Shown here: positions 18,757 to 29,886 of the stretch, in pieces | How positions within the stretch are numbered: the stretch's first letter is position 1 | Layout of the letters: each line of letters opens with the position of its first letter | NCBI GenBank assembly: GCA_036654235.1 | Contig: JAVVSK010000001.1 | Location: forward strand, 7,758 to 71,757 | DNA: 64,000 nucleotides | Source of the DNA: Clostridia bacterium | Lineage (GTDB): Bacteria; Bacillota; Clostridia; Christensenellales; CAG-138 | Reading direction: 5' to 3' | Position numbers and translations under genes: made by a program | The notes under the pieces: generated by a model | Database searches by the model: none | Told to the model about the DNA's origin: nothing | What the model saw: only the letters and a program-made list of their open reading frames with translations

Positions 18757-18909
18757 ACGATATGATTGATATGTACGCATGCGTTAGTGCAGAATTTACG
18801 TCTTTGGAGAGTACATGAACTTGTTAGTAGATTTGAGAAATCATTTCGAACGCATACTCGTTGAAAAATGAATGAAACATAAAAGTTATAACTTTTTTAT
18901 AAGTTTTCA

Positions 18910-19499
18910 GTAACGGCTACCAATGCTTACAACGAGCTTTACGGCATCGACCGGATGCTTAAGGCGCTCAACCTTAGCAAGGATGCAAGCTGCAAAACAC
19001 TGCTGCATAGGATGAAAGAGGACATTGACTTGTTTCTTGGGGCGGCACCCCAATTCGACGACATCACAATGCTGAGTCTTGAACTGATGCCCCGGAAAGG
19101 CTCCGCTATGAAAAAGTTGAAGCTTTTTCCCACTCTAGAAGTTATTGACGAAGTGGTCGCCTTTTGTGGAACAGGAGTTGGAAACAGCGGGCATTTCGAT
19201 GAAAAGAATTATACAGATGAACATTGCGGTGGATGAAATATTTTCAAACCTTGCTCGGCATTCAAACACCACCGACGCTACCGTAGGCGTGATTGTGGAA
19301 GACGGGCGTATCACTGCGTTTTGCCGACAACGGACATCCCTATGACCCAACGGAGAAGCCGAATCCGGGCATCGCCCTTCCCGCCGATGAGCGGGATATT
19401 GGCGGGCTTGGAATTTTTATGGTGAAGAAATCCATGGACACCGTTGAATATGAGTATCATGATGACTTCAATATTTTGACATTGACAAAGAGCAGTTAG
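18910..19499 (+). pseudogene. 5'-truncated, twice-frameshifted PP2C (SpoIIE-type) phosphatase fused to an RsbW-like GHKL (HATPase_c_2) module
   Basis: Three overlapping frames (18955..19236, 19145..19345, 19293..19499) join into ...LYGIDRMLKALN...APQFDDITMLSLEL (PP2C end). This is followed by ...NIAVDEIFSNLARHS...FADNGHPYDP...DIGGLGIFMVKKSMDTVEYEY (N-box and G-box pattern of anti-sigma-type kinases). Confidence 0.6.
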
Positions 19500-19641: not shown

Positions 19642-20523
19642 ATGAAAACGAAAAAAACAGTGACCATGATTCTGACCGTATTGACCCTTTGCCTCGTGCT
19701 TACCGCTTGCACCAGCACGAACAATAACCCTGCCTCGGCCAGTCCATCACAATCGGAAACCAAGCTTCTTGCCGGCGTACTGGAGCAAAACAGTTTGGAA
19801 ACCTCCGCCCGAAAGCAGTGGACAGAGGTTAAGGGTAACAGTACCTTGAGCGAGAAAGTCAAATACACTTCCTTCTCTACATTGAACGCTATGCTGATGG
19901 AGTTGAATGCCGGGCGAGTGAATTATTTGCAACTTCCAAGCAGTGTCGCCAACTATCTGGCTGCCACGGACAACAAGCTCATCGTAGTTGAGCCAAAGCC
20001 AGTCAGACTGCATTACCATATGGCGGGCCGCGCGGAGGATACCGCGCTGTGTGAAGAAATGAACAGCGCCATCGACAAACTGAAAGCCAATGGTACACTG
20101 GATCAGTTGGTTGCCGACTATATCACCAACGCCAAAGGTGCGCCCACCGCCAATAAGCTGGCACACAAAGAGGGCGGAGAAACTCATATCGTCGCCGTCA
20201 CCGGCGATTTGCCGCCGCTGGACTATGTTTCCGCCGACGGCACACCCGCGGGTTTCAATGTGGCGCTGCTCAATGCCGTCTCTGAGTTAACCGGCTGTAA
20301 TTTTGAAATTGTGCAGTTGGAAGCCTCTGCCCGACTTTCCGCACTTGCGAGCGGGAAAGTCGACATGATTTTCTGGATCGGCTGTTGGAGCAACGACGAT
20401 TATGAACCAAGCGAGGATGGCGTTTGCCTGACCACACCGTATTTTGAGGAAGACATCTGCTTCGTAGGGTACTCAAAGGAGATTATGGAAAAAGTTGCGT
20501 TGCTTTTTCAAAACAAAAAATAA
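19642..20523 (+). CDS. Lipoprotein, family-3 (polar amino acid type) ABC substrate-binding protein with reversed half-domain order
   Basis: 293 aa. Lipobox LTAC. The C-terminal-type half (NAGRVNYLQLPSSVANYL...KLKANGTLDQLVADYI) precedes the N-terminal-type half (HIVAVTGDLPPLDYVSADGTPAGFNVALLNAV...LASGKVDMIFW...LTTPYFEED). Confidence 0.8.
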   Translation: MKTKKTVTMILTVLTLCLVLTACTSTNNNPASASPSQSETKLLAGVLEQNSLETSARKQWTEVKGNSTLSEKVKYTSFSTLNAMLMELNAGRVNYLQLPSSVANYLAATDNKLIVVEPKPVRLHYHMAGRAEDTALCEEMNSAIDKLKANGTLDQLVADYITNAKGAPTANKLAHKEGGETHIVAVTGDLPPLDYVSADGTPAGFNVALLNAVSELTGCNFEIVQLEASARLSALASGKVDMIFWIGCWSNDDYEPSEDGVCLTTPYFEEDICFVGYSKEIMEKVALLFQNKK

Positions 20524-20572: not shown

Positions 20573-21435
20573 ATGAAAAATGCTAACCCTGATTGTGGTC
20601 ACCATGATACTTTGCGCTACTCTATCTGCCTTCCAGAATCGTTTGTTAGGGCGTACCTCCGCGGCGGAAGAAACATTTTCCATCGAGAAAGCCGTTGAGG
20701 TAATACGGCGGCATACCTGCTGAAGCACTGCAAGACCGTCACTTACGCCCAACTAAACTATGACAACGGTGACACGATACATAGAATTTTTTACACAGAT
20801 GACAAGGGAAATCTATCTTCCACGGGGGATAGCTCCGGCTATGCCGACTACCAGACTGACTATCTGGATTTTCACCACCCCCGAGCAGGGCGAGGTCGTC
20901 TATACCATTTCTGCTGCAAAGGATATCTATGTCAGCGATTATTTGTTTGCTGTTCCCGGCGGAACGTTTACCGTCCGGGTCACCGACGGGAACGGCAATC
21001 TGGTCTGTACAGCCCAAGCGAGTATTGCCGGGACTACGCATTGGGCTGTCGGATTTTGGAACGATTACCACCGAGGACAAAATGGTGACCACCTCAGTTT
21101 TTGCGTATGATGACTTCCGCGCACTGACTATTGACTTTACGATCTACCGACCAGATGGCTCGGAAATCAAAATAGCCTCCGGCGCGCTGTTTTACGACCG
21201 GGAAGCGCAATATACAGACGTGATAAAAAGCTATCCGGAGGTCGAAAAAGTCACTGTTTCCGTTCGGATGCCCGATGGAAGTACCCGCACAGCGGGAATT
21301 CCCAAGGGAGAAGTCTTTACATGGGACTTCGACAATGCCTATGCCCTTTACGCGGATAAGGACGGCAAAATGCTACTGGGCGAAAAATCGCAGCCGATAC
21401 AGACGGATTTGACGCTGTACTGTCTGCCAAAATAA
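20573..21435 (+). pseudogene. Frameshifted gene for a secreted hypothetical protein
   Basis: A signal-peptide-like MLTLIVVTMILCATLSA frame stops at about 20722. The reading then continues in frames 20760..21110 and 20929..21435, which overlap and join sensibly near 21055 (..THWAVGF / GTITTEDKMV..). Confidence 0.5.
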
Positions 21436-22001: not shown

Positions 22002-22688
22002 ATGTCTCTGGGCGATATTTTCTATAAAACGCTAATTGAAGGCGGGTCTTGGTTGACCATTCTTAAAGGTCTTTGGGTTACGGTGGAAATTACGCTCCTG
22101 TCCATGGTGCTGGGGACATTGTTGGCGGCGCTGGTGTGCGCTTTGCGCCTACGAAAAGGGCGTTTTCCACGCACTGTGGCAAGCGTTTATATCGCAGTGC
22201 TGCGCGGCAGTCCGGTACTACTTTTGCTGATGATTATGTACTATGTTGTTTTTGCCAAAAGTACGCTTTCCGCACCGCTCATCGCGGTGGCGGCCTACAC
22301 GCTGAACTTCTCCGCCCACGCGGCGGAGGTTATGCGCGCGGCTCTCTCCGCCACCGACAAAATGCAGACCGAGGCGGCGCGGACGCTTGGCTTTTCAAAA
22401 TGGCAGGCTTTCCGCCTGATTACGCTGCCCCAGGCGGCGAAAATCGCCAAGCCCGTCTACCAGTCCACCATAGTAAACCTGATTCAGTGGACAAGTGTGG
22501 TGGGATATGTCACCATCACCGACCTCACCCGAGTAATAAATAACATCAGTTCCCGCACGATGCAACCTCTTTTTATGTTGCTGGTGGGTATCGCACTCTA
22601 TCTAGGACTGGCCTACCTTTGCTATGGCGTATTCGCGTGGCTGGATCGGCGTGAGGAAAACAGAGTGGCAAGGAGGCAGGCGCAATGA
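22002..22688 (+). CDS. Polar-amino-acid ABC transporter permease (His/Glu/Gln/Arg/opine family)
   Basis: 228 aa with about 5 hydrophobic helices and the EAA-type loop TEAARTLGFSKWQAFRLITLPQA. A 4-nt overlap with the ATPase gene. Confidence 0.9.
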   Translation: MSLGDIFYKTLIEGGSWLTILKGLWVTVEITLLSMVLGTLLAALVCALRLRKGRFPRTVASVYIAVLRGSPVLLLLMIMYYVVFAKSTLSAPLIAVAAYTLNFSAHAAEVMRAALSATDKMQTEAARTLGFSKWQAFRLITLPQAAKIAKPVYQSTIVNLIQWTSVVGYVTITDLTRVINNISSRTMQPLFMLLVGIALYLGLAYLCYGVFAWLDRREENRVARRQAQ

Positions 22689-23779
22689 GTATGCTTCGCG
22701 TGGAAAATCTAAGCAAGGCCTTCGGCAGTCTCCAAGTACTGCGAAACGTTAGTCTCACGGTGGAGCAGGGAGAGCGCATTGCGCTCATTGGTCGCTCCGG
22801 CTGCGGCAAGAGCGTGTTTCTGCGCTCGCTTGAGCTTTTGGAACAACCGGACACCGGACGCATTTTTATCGGTGAGAATGAAATTACTGCCAAAGGTGCC
22901 AATGTAGATGCAATCCGCAGCCGTATGGGCATGGTATATCAGGGCTTTCATCTGTTTGAGCACATGGATGTGTTGGAAAACATCACTCTCGCACCCATCC
23001 GTTTGCGGAGGATGTCTCCACAGGCGGCAGAAGGAAAGGCCATGGAACTTTTGCGCATGGTGGGTCTGGAAAGCAAGCGCCATGCAATGCCGGAGGTTCT
23101 TTCCGGCGGACAGAAGCAGCGCATTGCTATCTGCCGATGCCTTGCCATGGAACCGCAGATTATGCTGTTCGATGAACCCACCAGCGCGTTAGACCCCACA
23201 ATGGTGGGTGAGGTGCTGGCTACTATCCGAATGCTTGCTAAGCGGGATATGACCATGCTCATTGTCACCCACGAAATGACCTTTGCTCGTGAGGTTGCTA
23301 CTCGGGTGCTCTACTTTGACGAGTACGGTATCTATGAGGAGGGCGCGCCGGAGGAATTGTTTGACCATCCCCAAAAGCCGAAGACACAGGCGTTCATCCG
23401 CAAGCTAAAATTCTTTGACCAGCACATCGACCGCCGGGACTTTGACCTCATGCAGCTCCACGGCGGCATCCGGAATTTTGCTGAGCGGTACGGGCTGGAA
23501 TCTAAATACGCAAACCGACTTCAGCTTTGCACCGAGGAACTGGTCTATGAGTTGCTGAACGGTTGCGGGGCGGAAGTTGACCTGAACGTGGAAATTACAT
23601 ATGGAGAGCTGACCAAGTCGGTGACTCTTAGTTGCGACTGCGCCGGTGAATCCTTCAACCCCTTCGACACGGCGGGCGACGAGGAGATCCATCTGGGCTT
23701 GACCATTCTGAAAAATGTGTCAAAAAATATTGAATGCCAATATGAAAACGGGCGCAATCTGGTGAAAATCAAATTATAG
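22685..23779 (+). CDS. Polar-amino-acid ABC transporter ATP-binding protein with a roughly 120-aa C-terminal RsbW-like (GHKL-type) extension
   Basis: Walker A GRSGCGKS, signature LSGGQKQR, Walker B MLFDEPTSALD and H-loop VTHEM. The protein is 364 aa, against about 245 aa for GlnQ-type proteins. See the finding for the tail. Confidence 0.9.
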   Translation: MSMLRVENLSKAFGSLQVLRNVSLTVEQGERIALIGRSGCGKSVFLRSLELLEQPDTGRIFIGENEITAKGANVDAIRSRMGMVYQGFHLFEHMDVLENITLAPIRLRRMSPQAAEGKAMELLRMVGLESKRHAMPEVLSGGQKQRIAICRCLAMEPQIMLFDEPTSALDPTMVGEVLATIRMLAKRDMTMLIVTHEMTFAREVATRVLYFDEYGIYEEGAPEELFDHPQKPKTQAFIRKLKFFDQHIDRRDFDLMQLHGGIRNFAERYGLESKYANRLQLCTEELVYELLNGCGAEVDLNVEITYGELTKSVTLSCDCAGESFNPFDTAGDEEIHLGLTILKNVSKNIECQYENGRNLVKIKL

Positions 23780-23791
23780 GAAGAACAACAT

Positions 23792-24600
23792 ATGACAAAG
23801 AGACGAATTGTAGATATTTTGGCGTGTATCATTCTGTGTGCAGCGCTTGTCGGCTGCGGAAAACAGAATACGCCGGATTTTACCTTCTCCTATCTCCGTA
23901 ACAGCCGGATTGAGCTTGTGTCGGAACAAGCGGCATGGGATCAAAGCAAGAAGCTGGACAGTGTGAAGTATCGGACAACGATAACTTTACGGTAAACGGC
24001 AAGGAAATTCATTCTACTGATTACGGCAGCGCAAATGAGGCGATGATGGTTTTCGACGGTGGGAAGGTGGACTGTGTCTATCTTCCGCTTTGCGTTGCGC
24101 AATATCTGTGTGCGGATCGGAATGAACTGCATATCGTGCAGGATACTTGGAATTCGCTGTATCAAATGGCGGAGCCTTCCGCGCAGTCGAAACTGCTAAT
24201 GAGGATTGACCAACAAATTGCTCTATGACAGAGGGACGGTACGCTGGACAGTCTCGCAAAGACCTATTTAGAGAACCAATCGCCAGGGAAACCGCCCACC
24301 ACCTCCGCATCCCAACCTGATGAATGGGCGACGGTGAAGGTAGGGGGTGATCGGTACTCTGCCGCCGCTTGACTATGTCTTGACGGATGGAATGCCCTCA
24401 GGCTACAATATGCTGTTACTAGCCGCGATGAGTGAGGCGCTACATATCAACGATGCAATCATTCTGTGCCTACGTAGAAAATTAAAGCCGAAGTAGATGC
24501 TATTTATGAAAAGAAGGTAGATGGTTTTACCGTTTTTTCTGCGAACGGAAATTGCTTTGACGCTACAGGCACAAAGCTACGCGAAGACACACTGATGTAA
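23792..24600 (+). pseudogene. Broken lipoprotein substrate-binding protein (frameshifts plus in-frame TGA), same reversed half-domain order
   Basis: Lipobox LVGC. There is a frame change near 23930-23975, an in-frame TGA at 24226-24228 inside ...IDQQIAL*QRDGTLDSLAKTYL, and a frameshift at the G5 run 24343-24347. After that the reading is VGVIGTLPPLDYVLTDGMPSGYNMLLLAAMSEAL. The 3' part is truncated. Confidence 0.65.
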
Positions 24601-24770: not shown

Positions 24771-27700
24771 ATGAGATATCAAATTATACGGACAATCGCG
24801 CTTGCACTGACCCTGATTACACTGACGAGCCTTCTGGCAGGCTGCAATGGAAAGGCAAAGCCGATCGTTACCGAGGCTTCGGATATGAACGATGAGGTCT
24901 ATATCATCGGCGTACTCTCTGGCGCGATGGCGGTGAACGCGGTAGAAAGTGCACTATCCAAAGCGAAAATGAAACATTACAACAGCCTATCGGATGCATA
25001 TCTCGCCGTCCAACAGGGAAAGGTGGATGCCTTTGCATTTGACCGATATCTGCTGAACTTTGCCATTGCGAATGGACTCACCGGTGTCAAGGTGCTCCCC
25101 GGCGATGTAGGCGCGGTCGGCGATGTGGGAATCGGAATTTCCAGAAAATCCGACATACCCGATTTGCAGCAGAAAATCAACGACTGCTTGGTACAGCTGG
25201 AGACCGACGGGACGTTGGACAACATGTTTCAACGCTGGGTTTTGAACGCCGACGATACCATGCCGGATGTCCCTAAGCCCGAACAGCCTACCATGACCTT
25301 AAAGGTCGGCACATCGGGTCTTACACAACCGTTCAGCTATTACAAGGGGAACGAACTGACGGGATATGATTTGGAGTTGACAGCACGCCTTGCGCTTTTT
25401 CTAAACGCGAAACTTGAAATCAAGGTTTACAACTACGATGGCCTTCCCTCAGCGGCGGAAGCCGGAAGTATCGACTGTATTTTGGCGAACCTCAACGCTA
25501 CGCCGGAGCGCCGGGAGATGATGGACTTTTCCACACCGATCTACCAGACAAATACGGCTCTTCTGGTGAAGGATGAGGGCACTACGGCGGAAGCGCCCAA
25601 TGTACCACTGGAGACAGCGAACTACGGCGTAATGAAAGGCTCCTCGGGCGAAAGCTATCTGCTTGAGCACTACCCGAAGGCTAAACGAAGCACATTTGCA
25701 TCCAACGCGGACGCTTTTGCGGCGTTGGCGGCAAATAAGGTGGATTATGTTTTGACAGCCTATACAATCTGCAATAACGCAATTGAAACGAACAGCGAAT
25801 TCGTGATTTACAAAGAAAACATGGCTGATCAGGAGATCGCCATGGCAGTAGCTAAGGATAACCCTAAGCTGTTGGAACAGATAAATGGTGTTATTGAGAA
25901 ATTCCAAAAGGACGGCAGGTTAGATGAAATCCATCATCGCTGGACGGATGCGCGGGGAAATTATACGCCGATTGATGTCCCCGTTGCTCAGGGGAAAAAT
26001 GGCATTCTGCGTTTGGCAACCAGCGGAGAACAGGAACCCTTTGGTTTTGTGCTGGACGGCAAGCTGCAAGGGCTGGACTGCGAGCTTATTGAACGGGTCG
26101 CCTTTGAACTGGACATGACCGTGGAATATCATACAATGTCGTTTGATAGTCTCATCGCCGCACTTTCCTCCGGTAAGGCGGATGTGATCTGCTCCGCAAT
26201 GGCGGTCACAGAGGAACGGCTTAAAAGCGTGAATTTTACCATCCCCTATTTGAATAACCCATTGAGCCTGGTTTGCCGCAAAAGCGATTTGGTGAATATC
26301 CTTCCGTCACAGACCGCCGCGGATGTCTCCCGCGTTCCGGTGGAGATCGCCCGCATTGGCGTGATGGATGCTTCCACCAACGCGCTCTACGCCGAGGAGC
26401 ACTACCCAAACGCAAAAATTCAGAGCTTTAAAAATTATGTAGACAGCACGGTCGCTCTCGACGCGGGTAAGCTGGACTATGCTATGATGGATTATACCAG
26501 TGCGTTGCGTTTTATCCGCAGCAACCGTAATTTGGAAATCGTAGCTGACGCTCTGACTGACGAAAAGCTCTGTTTGGGCATCAGTAAAAGCGAGCCGGAG
26601 TTTGCCAAAAAGGTGAGCGCCGTTGTGGATAAATACCTTGCCGACGGCACCATGGACGAAATCATCTCACACTGGATTAAGCCCGACGGAAGCGACTATA
26701 ACGTGCTGGAAACGCCTAGGATGGACGGCGCGCCGAAAATCAAGGTGGCAATAATCGCCTCCCGTGAGCCGACCACCTTCCTGTTGGATGGAAAATATGC
26801 AGGATTGGATATTGAGCTAATCGACCGCGTCCTCTATGAGCTGGGTTATCAGGCTGAATACATAGACATGGACTTAGCTGCGGTTCTCGCTACTGTGGAA
26901 AGCAATAAGGCTGAGATGACCCTCGGTATGTATAGTACCCCGGAACGGGCGGAAAAGCTCTTGTTTACCGCGCCCTATTTCGCCAATCCTCAGGTTATGT
27001 TGGCGCGCAAAACAGGCGAAACGGCAGCGGCGACGCCTGTCTCTTCCAACACTGCCGGATACGGCATTACCAGCATTTTAGCGCAGGACTATCTTGCGGG
27101 GAAATATCCAAGCGCCAAGTTCTTCATGTTCCCCGCCGCGGCAGATGCTATGTTGGCGCTCCGGAGCGGAAAACTGGACTATGTTATGGCTTCGCGCGCT
27201 ACCGTCGGTTACATGATGAAACAGGACTATACCCTCAAAATCGTTGGGAATAGTCTTTTCAATGAGGCATGCTACATCGCCGTCTCCAAACAACAGCCGG
27301 ACTTACGTGACAAGGTGGACTCCGTGCTTTCCAAGTTCAAGGCGGACGGCATCCTTAACGAGTTGACTGACCGTTGGACATTGGACGGTTCGGACTATTA
27401 CCGTAGCAAGGAAATTGAGTCGGCAGAGGGAAGAAACGGTGTTTTAAAAGTAGCTTTTTCCCCCGATGTGCCGCCGATTTGCTTTGTGCAGGACGGAAAA
27501 CCTGTCGGGATCAACGTGGAACTGATTGAGCTAATCGCCAAAGAGCTTGACATGACAGTGGAATTCTCCACCATGGATTTTGATGCGTTGCTCCCGGCTA
27601 TCCAGTCCGGAAAAGTGGATCTTGCCATCTCGGATATCAATGCCACGGACGAGCGTCGCAAGCGCGTGGATTTCACACAGAGCTATTTCGACAATCCCCA

Positions 27701-29191
27701 GGTGTTGGTAAGTCTGAGAGATACCGTGACCGACACGGGCGTACCCAAGTACACTGCCATTTCTCAACTCTCCGGCAAGGTTGTCGCCTGCCGGACAGGC
27801 TCGGTGCTGGATGTTCTCGTGGGCGGCGTCGTCCGGAACGTGACGTTCGCTTACTTCAACACTCATACCGATGAGCTTGCGGCACTCCAAAACGGAAAGG
27901 TGGAGGCCGTGCCGTTGGACGAGCCTATGGCGCGGCTGGCGGTGGCGCAAAATTCGGGCTTTGCTATCCTACCCGAACAAATCGTGGAAGATCATTACGG
28001 TATCGCCTTGCAAAAGGACAGCCCATTGACCGATCAGGTGAATGCGGCCATCGCTCAGCTGAGGACCGACGGAACTTTGGAAGAGATGAAGGAAAAATGG
28101 ACCGGTTTCGACGATAGTGCAAAGACTCTTCCGTATTTCGACTACCCCGGCGCGAACGGGACGCTGCGGGTGGCTCACGATATTGCCTCAGAACCAATGG
28201 AGTATATTGGCGCAAACGGTGCCGCTGTTGGCTACGATTTGGAGCTGATACTGCGCATCGGTAAAATTCTTGATCGCAAGGTGGAATTCGCCGCCGTGGA
28301 TTTTTCAGGGCTCATTCCCATGCTGCAAAGCGGAAAGGCTGACGCTGCCGTGGGATGCATGTCTATAACAGACGAGCGCAAAAAGACGGTGGACATGAGC
28401 GATTCCTATTACGATGGCGGACTCTATTTTGTGGTGTCCAAGGTGACCGAAGGGCAGTCCTCTGTGACTGCCCAACAGCAAACGAGTTTCTGGGACGGCT
28501 TGAAGGCTAGCTTTACCCGCACTTTCCTCACGGAAAACCGCTGGAAACTGGTGTTGGACGGGCTGGGAGTCACGGTGCTCATTTCAATTTGCTCAGGGCT
28601 GATTGGCTCCCTCATGGGCTTTGGTATCTGTATGCTTCGTCGCAGTAAAAAGCGTATCGCTGCTCTCCCGGCGGCGGGCTTTATACGGCTCATTCAGGGC
28701 ACACCTATCGTAGTGCTGCTGATGATCCTCTACTATATTATCTTTGGTAAGGTAGATGTCTCCTCTGTTCTGGTGGCGATTTTCGGCTTTGCGGTAAATT
28801 TCGGTGTCTATGTATCCGAGATGATGCGCACCGGTATTGATGCGGTGGATCGTGGGCAGATAGAAGCGGCTAACGCCCTGGGATTTACCAGAACAAGAAC
28901 CTTCTGGAAGATCACCTTTCCGCAGGCGGCTCGGCATTTTCTCCCGGTATTTAAGGGCGAGTTTATTTCCATGGTCAAGATGACCTCGGTGGTGGGCTAT
29001 ATCGCTATTCAGGATCTGACTAAGGTGTCTGACATCATCCGCAGCCGCACACTGGAGGCATTTTTCCCGCTCATTGCCACGGCGATTATTTACTTTCTCG
29101 TGGCAAATATTCTGACCATGCTGTTATCCCGGCTTGAAGTCAGCCTTGACCCCAAGCGCCGCAAGCGTACTGTGAAAGGAGTGGTTATGAA

Positions 29192-29195
<4 letters not shown>
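24771..29195 (+). CDS. Lipoprotein with ten alternating family-3 binding-protein half-domains (five domain equivalents) fused to a C-terminal ABC permease domain
   Basis: Uninterrupted 1,474-codon ORF. Signal peptide with lipobox LLAGC. Five T/S-x-E-R...PY motifs and five DG(T/R/I)(L/M)...W motifs. The C-terminal 225 aa have permease helices and the EAA loop IEAANALGFTRTRTFWKITFPQA. Confidence 0.88.
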
Positions 29196-29793
<598 letters not shown>

Positions 29794-29886
29794 AGCAATC
29801 ACTTGCGGAAGCGCATCGCCACGATATTGACGAAAAACACGAATTTGTTGAAAGCATCATACGAAAAGCAAAGGAGGAACTATATA

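Follow-up and report, generated by a model that had tools for sequence, protein, structure and literature searches.

The closest described relative of the protein treated here is GlnPQ of Lactococcus lactis (PDB 6H30, 4KR5 and 4LA9), an ATP-binding cassette (ABC) importer in which tandem SBP_bac_3 domains stand N-terminal to a BPD_transp_1 permease. GlnP has two binding domains in canonical order, tethered via the C-terminal end of the second substrate-binding domain (SBD2), and the ATPase gene comes next in a two-gene operon. In GlnPQ several receptors compete for one translocator (PMC8025302); the review PMC3971661 gives no number for fused binding domains. We analysed a 64,000-nt stretch of DNA (the window) from a Clostridia bacterium (contig JAVVSK010000001.1 of assembly GCA_036654235.1), in which an open reading frame (ORF) of 1,474 codons plus stop, located at 24771..29195 on the plus strand and uninterrupted in translation, encodes a protein with the same general layout. 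Its best PDB sequence match is 6h30 (E 2.8e-45). Very probably, the 1,474-aa protein consists of five tandem circularly permuted binding domains, each with its C-terminal half (B) ahead of its N-terminal half (A), followed by a polar-amino-acid-type (PAAT) permease. Unlike GlnP, it thus has five permuted domains (one to seven in its family), a tether on lobe 2 and an N-terminal lipobox. As a binding-domain-fused ABC importer of permuted receptor cassettes it is a member of a large family.

Other known proteins resemble it in part. The free class F binding proteins (E. coli GlnH, 1GGG/1WDN; T. maritima ArgBP, 4PRS; AncQR, 4ZV1) belong to the same fold family, share the motifs T-x-E-R...P-Y and D-G-T...W and reach up to 34% identity, but against a B-A module they align either with one half or with two stretches in swapped order. 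The permease domain is like that of Art(QN)2 of Thermoanaerobacter tengcongensis (PDB 4YMS; phmmer E 3.5e-31), where ArtQ has no fused binding domain and the binding protein ArtI (4YMX) is free and canonical. Homologous in fold to the binding domains of the window is also the S1-S2 ligand-binding domain of GluR0 and of ionotropic glutamate receptors (iGluR). In iGluR, S1 leaves the clamshell for the membrane at approximately the same point of lobe 2 at which the A half ends here; however, iGluR are channels and not ABC transporters, and the channel is inserted into a binding domain that is itself not permuted. The same topological rearrangement as here has been engineered into periplasmic binding proteins for biosensors, but these circular permutants are man-made, whereas the family described here is natural and occurs both free and fused. 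Among PDB chains none is colinear with a single permuted B-A domain, save for the trivial span from SBD1 to SBD2 in 6H30; B4-A5 (the last two halves of the array, see below) is colinear with 6h30 only across this SBD1/SBD2 boundary. In the full-text literature, with subscription papers and domain-database notes outside the search, we found engineered permutants and work on GlnPQ, but no description of a natural permuted class F binding domain. Such an absence is not proof of novelty. It agrees with a first, sequence-only reading of this DNA, which had placed the array outside the characterised GlnPQ-type fusions; neither the literature nor the PDB searches returned a description of it.

At its N-terminus the 1,474-aa protein has a basic n-region, a hydrophobic h-region and the sequence L-L-A-G-C, which were read from the translation as a lipoprotein signal peptide (24771..24845, +; lipobox LLAGC at aa 21-25, Cys25). 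By the lipobox it is classed as a bacterial lipoprotein, and a lipobox-like motif is present in 121 of 216 fusion homologues and in 111 of 120 free homologues. Pfam SBP_bac_3 (PF00497) matches the protein in five stretches (E 5.1e-154) and NCBIfam TIGR01096 in six (E 1.3e-147), while Pfam Lig_chan-Glu_bd matches the A halves. Motifs of the A type are located at aa 242-258, 478-494, 721-737, 957-973 and 1198-1214, and ends of the B type at aa 146-156, 381-391, 625-635, 859-869 and 1100-1110. A custom hidden Markov model (HMM) made from the four internal full-length units matches the protein six times: with its C-terminal half only (B0, aa 35-157 corresponding to HMM positions 105-222, E 1.5e-16), four times at full length (aa 171-394, 407-639, 651-870 and 885-1114, E approximately 1e-101 to 1e-110) and with its N-terminal half only (A5, aa 1127-1238 corresponding to positions 3-113, E 2e-25). 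The array therefore does not follow the canonical N-to-C domain order, since it begins at HMM position 105 and finishes at position 113. The order of halves is B0-A1-B1-A2-B2-A3-B3-A4-B4-A5, and then the permease follows. This is in line with the sequence-only reading, whose uninterrupted ORF with a LLAGC lipobox was confirmed by translation, whose five A-type motifs and five B-type ends were all recovered at the same ten positions, and whose order of halves reappears in the HMM coordinates as one half, four full units and one half.

Boundaries of the halves were set by the first and last conserved strands. The A half takes in hinge 1 and the first strand of lobe 2 (an example of its end is ...TPIYQTNTALLVKD), and the B half extends from the next lobe-2 strand through to D-G-T...W. 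The connections from B to A are uniform (18, 19, 20, 20 and 19 aa), those from A to B variable (14, 22, 14 and 18 aa). Joined by the uniform connections, the halves form module 1 (B0-A1, aa 42-268, 24894..25574, 18-aa linker), module 2 (B1-A2, aa 283-504, 25617..26282, 19-aa linker), module 3 (B2-A3, aa 527-747, 26349..27011, 20-aa linker), module 4 (B3-A4, aa 762-983, 27054..27719, 20-aa linker) and module 5 (B4-A5, aa 1002-1224, 27774..28442, 19-aa linker), all on the plus strand. Module 5 closes with the strand after hinge 1. Downstream of A5, a segment of approximately 15 residues leads into an amphipathic helix and the permease; we annotate aa 1225-1239 (28443..28487, +) as a flexible tether linking module 5 to the membrane domain and aa 1240-1474 (28488..29195, +) as a PAAT-type ABC permease domain with BPD_transp_1 and the EAA loop EAANALG (aa 1365-1371). 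Thus, the permease is preceded by an A half with its post-hinge lobe-2 strand, and not by a domain in canonical order with a C-terminal lobe-1 tether.

The same register is found throughout the family. A search with the whole protein yielded 81 close homologues with one to five domain equivalents each, and in all 81 the array runs from an opening B half to a closing A half. Among 1.84 billion representatives, a word-index-free search gave 1,422 proteins at E <=1e-30; the best 150 of these included 142 new proteins (representatives of clusters at 50% identity), which we used as the distant set. The strict (B-A)n-permease form is present in 137 of the 142, with n = 1 in 4, n = 2 in 51, n = 3 in 53, n = 4 in 23, n = 5 in 3, n = 6 in 2 and n = 7 in 1 protein (P0204, 2,009 aa). 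Single-module fusions include P0077, P0277 and P0328. The five exceptions are P0221, P0252, P0320, P0315 and P0318. Two of them, P0221 and P0252, start with an A half and are N-terminally truncated ORFs. In P0252 and P0320 the permease is followed by an extra membrane helix and a further C-terminal B-A module, which places receptors at both ends of the permease, and the protein stops right after the last strand of the A half in this module. In P0052-P0057, P0062 and P0077 the ATPase is additionally fused. Before their first B half, P0042 and P0044 have a region of approximately 300 residues with one predicted membrane helix. The database names of family members are only generic ('ABC transporter permease subunit', 'transporter substrate-binding domain-containing protein').

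The permuted order is not confined to fusions. The gene 19642..20523 (+) encodes a free lipoprotein binding protein of 293 aa, detected with TIGR01096 and the custom HMM, in which aa 71-160 (HMM positions 132-221) precede aa 184-275 (positions 10-96); its B-A order had been recognised correctly in the sequence-only reading. It has at least 409 relatives, and B-A order was found in all 120 of those listed. Since proteins with exactly one B and one A half exist, B-A is a self-sufficient domain.

Which halves are inherited together can be seen in 31 sufficiently close homologues, in which each half was assigned to its nearest half in the window. The adjacency B(i)-A(i+1) was retained at 102 of 102 junctions (25/25, 13/13, 18/18, 20/20 and 26/26 for modules 1 to 5), whereas A(i)-B(i) was retained at 29 of 71 junctions and broken at the other 42. 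The 31 homologues show 15 module orders (e.g. B0A1-B2A3-B3A4-B4A5; B0A1-B2A3-B1A2; B3A4-B2A3-B4A5), several modules are able to stand first or last, and the first B half and the last A half occur in eight different combinations. Gain, loss and shuffling of modules are confined to the A-to-B junctions. We also compared the similarities of halves in 445 A-B-A triplets from 217 proteins. B-half similarity was correlated with that of the downstream A halves with a Pearson coefficient of 0.68 (0.84 within one protein), and with that of the upstream A halves with a coefficient of 0.32 (0.18 within one protein). The unit of inheritance is B-A. In the comparison with the orthologue P0002 (locus L005), B1 and A2 are 49% and 53% identical and all other halves 67-90%; the proportion of nonsynonymous differences (pN) is 0.32-0.37 in module 2 and 0.06-0.17 elsewhere. 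This suggests that the module 2 cassette was replaced, or has evolved rapidly, as one unit. Binding-site residues did not discriminate between the two registers, as their counts are equal under either pairing.

For structure prediction with AlphaFold2 (AF2), whole homologues were aligned to the query, and the models were read out by their predicted local distance difference test (pLDDT) and by the root-mean-square deviation (RMSD) and template modelling (TM) score in Foldseek. Model 1, which covers aa 26-510 (B0-A1-B1-A2), has a mean pLDDT of 93.8 and a predicted TM score (pTM) of 0.63, as would be expected if two rigid bodies were connected by a flexible joint. Inside the model, pLDDT falls below 50 only at aa 271-273, in the A1-to-B1 junction, and both B-to-A linkers are above 90. 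Model 2 (aa 752-1474, B3-A4-B4-A5-permease) has a mean pLDDT of 86.5, with 90-95 in the B4-A5 linker and below 50 at aa 1228-1238 in the tether. When canonical binding proteins were aligned over a contiguous A-B stretch, the RMSD was approximately 24 A and the target-normalised TM score (TMt) at most 0.5; such an RMSD indicates that only one half fits the canonical protein. For example, AncQR (4zv1) is 34% identical over 233 columns and was aligned in sequence order on the A-B stretch. The unit nearest to canonical proteins, A4-B4, likewise fails to superpose. As a control, the permease was placed on the Art(QN)2 chain 4yms_D with a TMt of 0.77 at 34% identity. In neither of the two predicted models are A(i) and B(i) one body.

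The C-terminal domain identifies the type of transporter. Pfam BPD_transp_1 matches aa 1278-1454 (E 2.8e-23), TIGR01726 (HEQRo_perm_3TM) matches with E 2.6e-15, and TcyL/EhuC-like NCBIfam models match too. The binding domains are therefore fused N-terminally to a permease of the BPD_transp_1 / HEQRo 3-TM type, in which all 35 family-invariant residue columns are kept. In the four homologue loci examined, the fusion gene is followed, with an overlap of 4 bp, by an ATPase gene of approximately 360 codons, and no second permease gene was found; GlnPQ, too, has a two-gene operon with the ATPase gene next. From the GlnPQ analogy and the two-gene operon of fusion and ATPase we infer a homodimer with a dimeric ATPase, which would make (fusion)2(ATPase)2 the most likely composition. 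The Arg of T-x-E-R, which we take to be the alpha-carboxylate ligand in GlnH/HisJ-type proteins, is present in all five A halves. The Asp equivalent to GlnH D157 is presumably the alpha-ammonium ligand. Judging from these residues, the ligands would be amino acids or related carboxylates; specificities of individual modules cannot be called at this level. An Rfam scan of 18-31.5 kb revealed no riboswitch or leader upstream of 24771..29195.

Directly downstream of the fusion gene, the window contains a dead ATPase gene, which had been missed in the sequence-only reading. This pseudogene of the cognate ATPase, the nucleotide-binding domain (NBD) subunit, is located at 29192..29772 (+) and was detected by tblastn with 78-85% identity to the ATPase following P0014. 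Its lesions are three in-frame stops, a frameshift near 29572-29590, a Walker A motif mutated to GLSGIGKST and a truncation at about residue 193 of approximately 360, at 29772; the next gene starts at 29803. Thus the window has no intact adjacent cognate ATPase, while the ATPase is intact in 4/4 homologue loci examined. Further upstream are genes for a paralogous stand-alone permease of 228 aa (22002..22688, +), 38% identical to the permease domain of the 1,474-aa protein, and for an intact paralogous ATPase of 364 aa (22685..23779, +), which along its entire length shares 47% identity with the ATPases following P0014 and P0043 and carries the C-terminal extension of the family. It is the only intact NBD found near 24771..29195. 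Since its own ATPase gene is dead, the 1,474-aa protein, if active, would have to use this paralogous ATPase, which is a candidate shared partner.

The C-terminal extension of the ATPase 22685..23779 comprises approximately 120 residues. Within it, aa 262-362 (23468..23770) are similar to HATPase_c_2, a GHKL / anti-sigma-kinase-like domain, with E 4.8e-4 when searched alone, which is below the Pfam cut-off. Homologous fusion genes are followed by ATPases of 359-362 residues, for one of which (locus L001) a faint HATPase_c_2 match was obtained, and the fused proteins P0052-P0057, P0062 and P0077 have long C-terminal regions after the ATPase. The extension may be a regulatory domain.

Both ABC systems lie in a region of approximately 19.3-29.8 kb with 50-53% GC, as compared to approximately 41% in the rest of the window. 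This island is partly syntenic with locus L006 of an Oscillibacter metagenome-assembled genome (MAG), and both its ends cut through genes. At the downstream end this is the ATPase pseudogene truncated at 29772. At the upstream end, 19293..19499 correspond to the final 62 codons of a SpoIIE-HATPase_c_2 gene; in L006 this gene stands upstream. We had considered 19293..19499 as a relic of another ATPase C-terminal extension, and rejected this because it matches the 3' end of the SpoIIE-HATPase_c_2 gene. A second free permuted binding lipoprotein is represented by a pseudogene (23795..24463, +; tblastn E 1.9e-18), in which different frames encode the signal peptide, the B half, itself interrupted by an in-frame stop, and the beginning of the A half. 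The ORFs 20760..21110 and 20929..21435 (+), although in two frames, belong to a single disrupted lipoprotein gene (approximately 20700..21435, about 290 residues). This gene is intact upstream of the fusion in L006 (5611..6492) and L002 (3716..4585), and these copies are 58-64% identical to the window version over the C-terminal 120-130 residues. Just outside of the island, Rfam detected a RAGATH-18 RNA at 18801..18872 (+; 50.9 bits, gathering score 44.9). Intact genes in the island are 19642..20523, 22002..22688, 22685..23779 and 24771..29195. By its composition and gene content, the island of approximately 10.5 kb was apparently acquired from an Oscillospiraceae-like donor and is in decay.

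The sequence-only reading had offered two ways to group the ten halves: five permuted domains in tandem, or four canonical A-B domains flanked by the orphan halves B0 and A5, which would pair across the array as a fifth, split domain. In favour of the latter, the internal A-B stretches match canonical HMMs and PDB chains end to end, and both chain ends are membrane-tethered, which makes a B0:A5 pair topologically possible. If so, however, the first B and the last A half should co-evolve, yet they occur in eight combinations, and the junction that ought to be stable, A(i)-B(i), is the one that breaks while B(i)-A(i+1) never does. Since, in addition, B halves track the downstream A half in the mirror-tree correlation, B-A is the order of free proteins and of single-module fusions, and the contiguous A-B stretches of the AF2 models fail to superpose on canonical proteins, we regard a split domain as very improbable. 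Family architecture, co-inheritance of modules and structure prediction point to five permuted domains, and the AF2 models of aa 26-510 and aa 752-1474 favour B-A packing, structure models having been proposed at the outset as a check. The count of units per protein, proposed likewise, gave one to seven B-A units in the 81 close and in 137 of the 142 distant homologues; thus the five units of this protein, which had seemed exceptional, are surpassed within the family. Even less probable is a sensory protein similar to the tandem Venus-flytrap domains of BvgS and EvgS. Their periplasmic domains are among the top Foldseek matches, and the ATPase C-terminal domain has its weak similarity to HATPase_c_2, but the RMSD is 22-25 A for the BvgS/EvgS matches, the fusion ends in a bona fide ABC permease domain with EAA loop, and in homologues an ABC ATPase always follows or is fused. 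That the array arose in assembly by repeat expansion or mis-joining is practically excluded, despite tandem repeats of approximately 700 nt in the gene and although the single further contig retrieved (L004, GCA_036655175.1), with 100% identity over 24.4 kb of the window, is possibly not independent. The five units are mutually only 23-39% identical at the amino acid level, which rules out mis-assembly, and the longest DNA repeats within 24771..29195 are <=37 nt long with 60-86% identity. The reading frame is unbroken throughout, unrelated samples yielded homologues with five, six and seven modules, and five-unit homologues exist at 74% (P0002), 47% (P0010) and 34% (P0039) identity. Judged by this divergence, the repeats are old. 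Several observations weigh against five permuted domains in a working importer. In AF2 model 2 the B3-A4 linker has in part a pLDDT of 62, compared with 67 at the A4-to-B4 junction. The packing of B(i) with A(i+1) was deduced with the help of pLDDT profiles and of the RMSD in Foldseek rather than a contact map or the predicted aligned error (PAE), and the lines of evidence from inheritance and structure are not fully independent, because AF2 drew on alignments of the same family. The dyad Asp is present in B0, B2 and B4, whereas B1 has Ala and B3 has Ser at this position, so that three modules resemble ordinary amino-acid receptors while modules 2 and 4 may bind something else. Finally, activity in this organism is uncertain because of the dead cognate ATPase and an island with several pseudogenes.

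The last point leads to the view that 24771..29195 is a decaying, horizontally acquired relic, which has lost its ATPase and transports nothing, its permuted-family architecture notwithstanding. The three stops, the frameshift and the truncation of the ATPase gene, the pseudogenes of one binding protein and one lipoprotein nearby, and a GC-rich segment bounded by truncated genes in synteny with the Oscillibacter MAG locus would fit such a relic. Against it, the fusion gene shows no stop or frameshift in 4,422 nt, where the lesion density of the 0.58-kb ATPase remnant (at least five) would predict tens; the ratio of nonsynonymous to synonymous substitution rates (dN/dS) in comparison with the P0002 gene is 0.12; and all 35 family-invariant permease residues are retained. 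With these three properties the gene looks constrained. Moreover, 1-5 kb upstream are genes for a permease, for a free binding protein of permuted order and for an intact ATPase from the same subfamily. We therefore consider a relic unlikely, though to be kept in mind, and the most economical reading of the locus is that the 1,474-aa protein is in use and borrows the upstream ATPase 22685..23779.

With five permuted domains, which is very probable, the gene product unites receptors and membrane domain in one subunit of a PAAT (type I) ABC importer, with a signal peptide followed by five SBP_bac_3 / class F domains, a short flexible tether and the permease. Architecture, register, inheritance as B-A units and the pattern across the family are shown by the analysis; dimer, ligands and ATPase partner are inferences from it. 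The chain of each domain begins in lobe 2, just past its first strand. The B half provides what is left of lobe 2, then hinge 2 and the helices at the C-terminal end of lobe 1; the old termini are closed by the conserved linker of 18-20 residues, and the A half adds the N-terminal portion of lobe 1, followed by hinge 1 and the first lobe-2 strand. B(i) would pack with A(i+1), with the variable A-to-B junctions (14-22 aa) as inter-domain linkers. Both chain ends of every domain would then exit from lobe 2, from which the tether towards the permease would leave as well. As a homodimer on a dimeric ATPase, the protein would have ten binding sites, possibly of differing specificities, competing to dock on one translocator.

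It is tempting to go further and to consider the permutation as a functional redesign, a proposal which we find rather doubtful at present. With adjacent chain ends on lobe 2, pendant cassettes could be inserted, deleted and shuffled freely, and the 15 module orders as well as n = 1-7 are consistent with freely shuffled cassettes. The array might be tethered via lobe 2 at one end, similarly to S1-M1 of glutamate receptors, and by the lipid anchor at the other, and docking geometry and hand-over to the translocator could be unlike those of GlnPQ. In this genome, the array may have been re-wired to the ATPase of the neighbouring operon, perhaps pairing with the 228-residue permease.

The architecture described here is important for several reasons. 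It represents a natural and abundant circular permutation in the periplasmic-binding-protein fold, and its tandem fused domains are the intermediate setting which the 'permutation by duplication' model needs, so that the evolutionary route becomes testable. Current annotation hides the permuted architecture, and domain callers will mis-count the domains. The natural permuted scaffolds reveal tolerated new termini and a closing linker, which could be used in biosensor design, and since the modules act as cassettes open to shuffling, the family is a natural library of specificities. Because five modules are no record and the local ATPase is dead, the significance rests on the family rather than on the gene 24771..29195. 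For ABC importers, binding-protein fold evolution and biosensor scaffolds alike, the family is of relevance: it extends the receptor-fused ABC importers from the two canonical domains of GlnPQ to up to seven permuted domains per chain, and its altered tether point bears on how linked receptors compete for and dock at their translocator.

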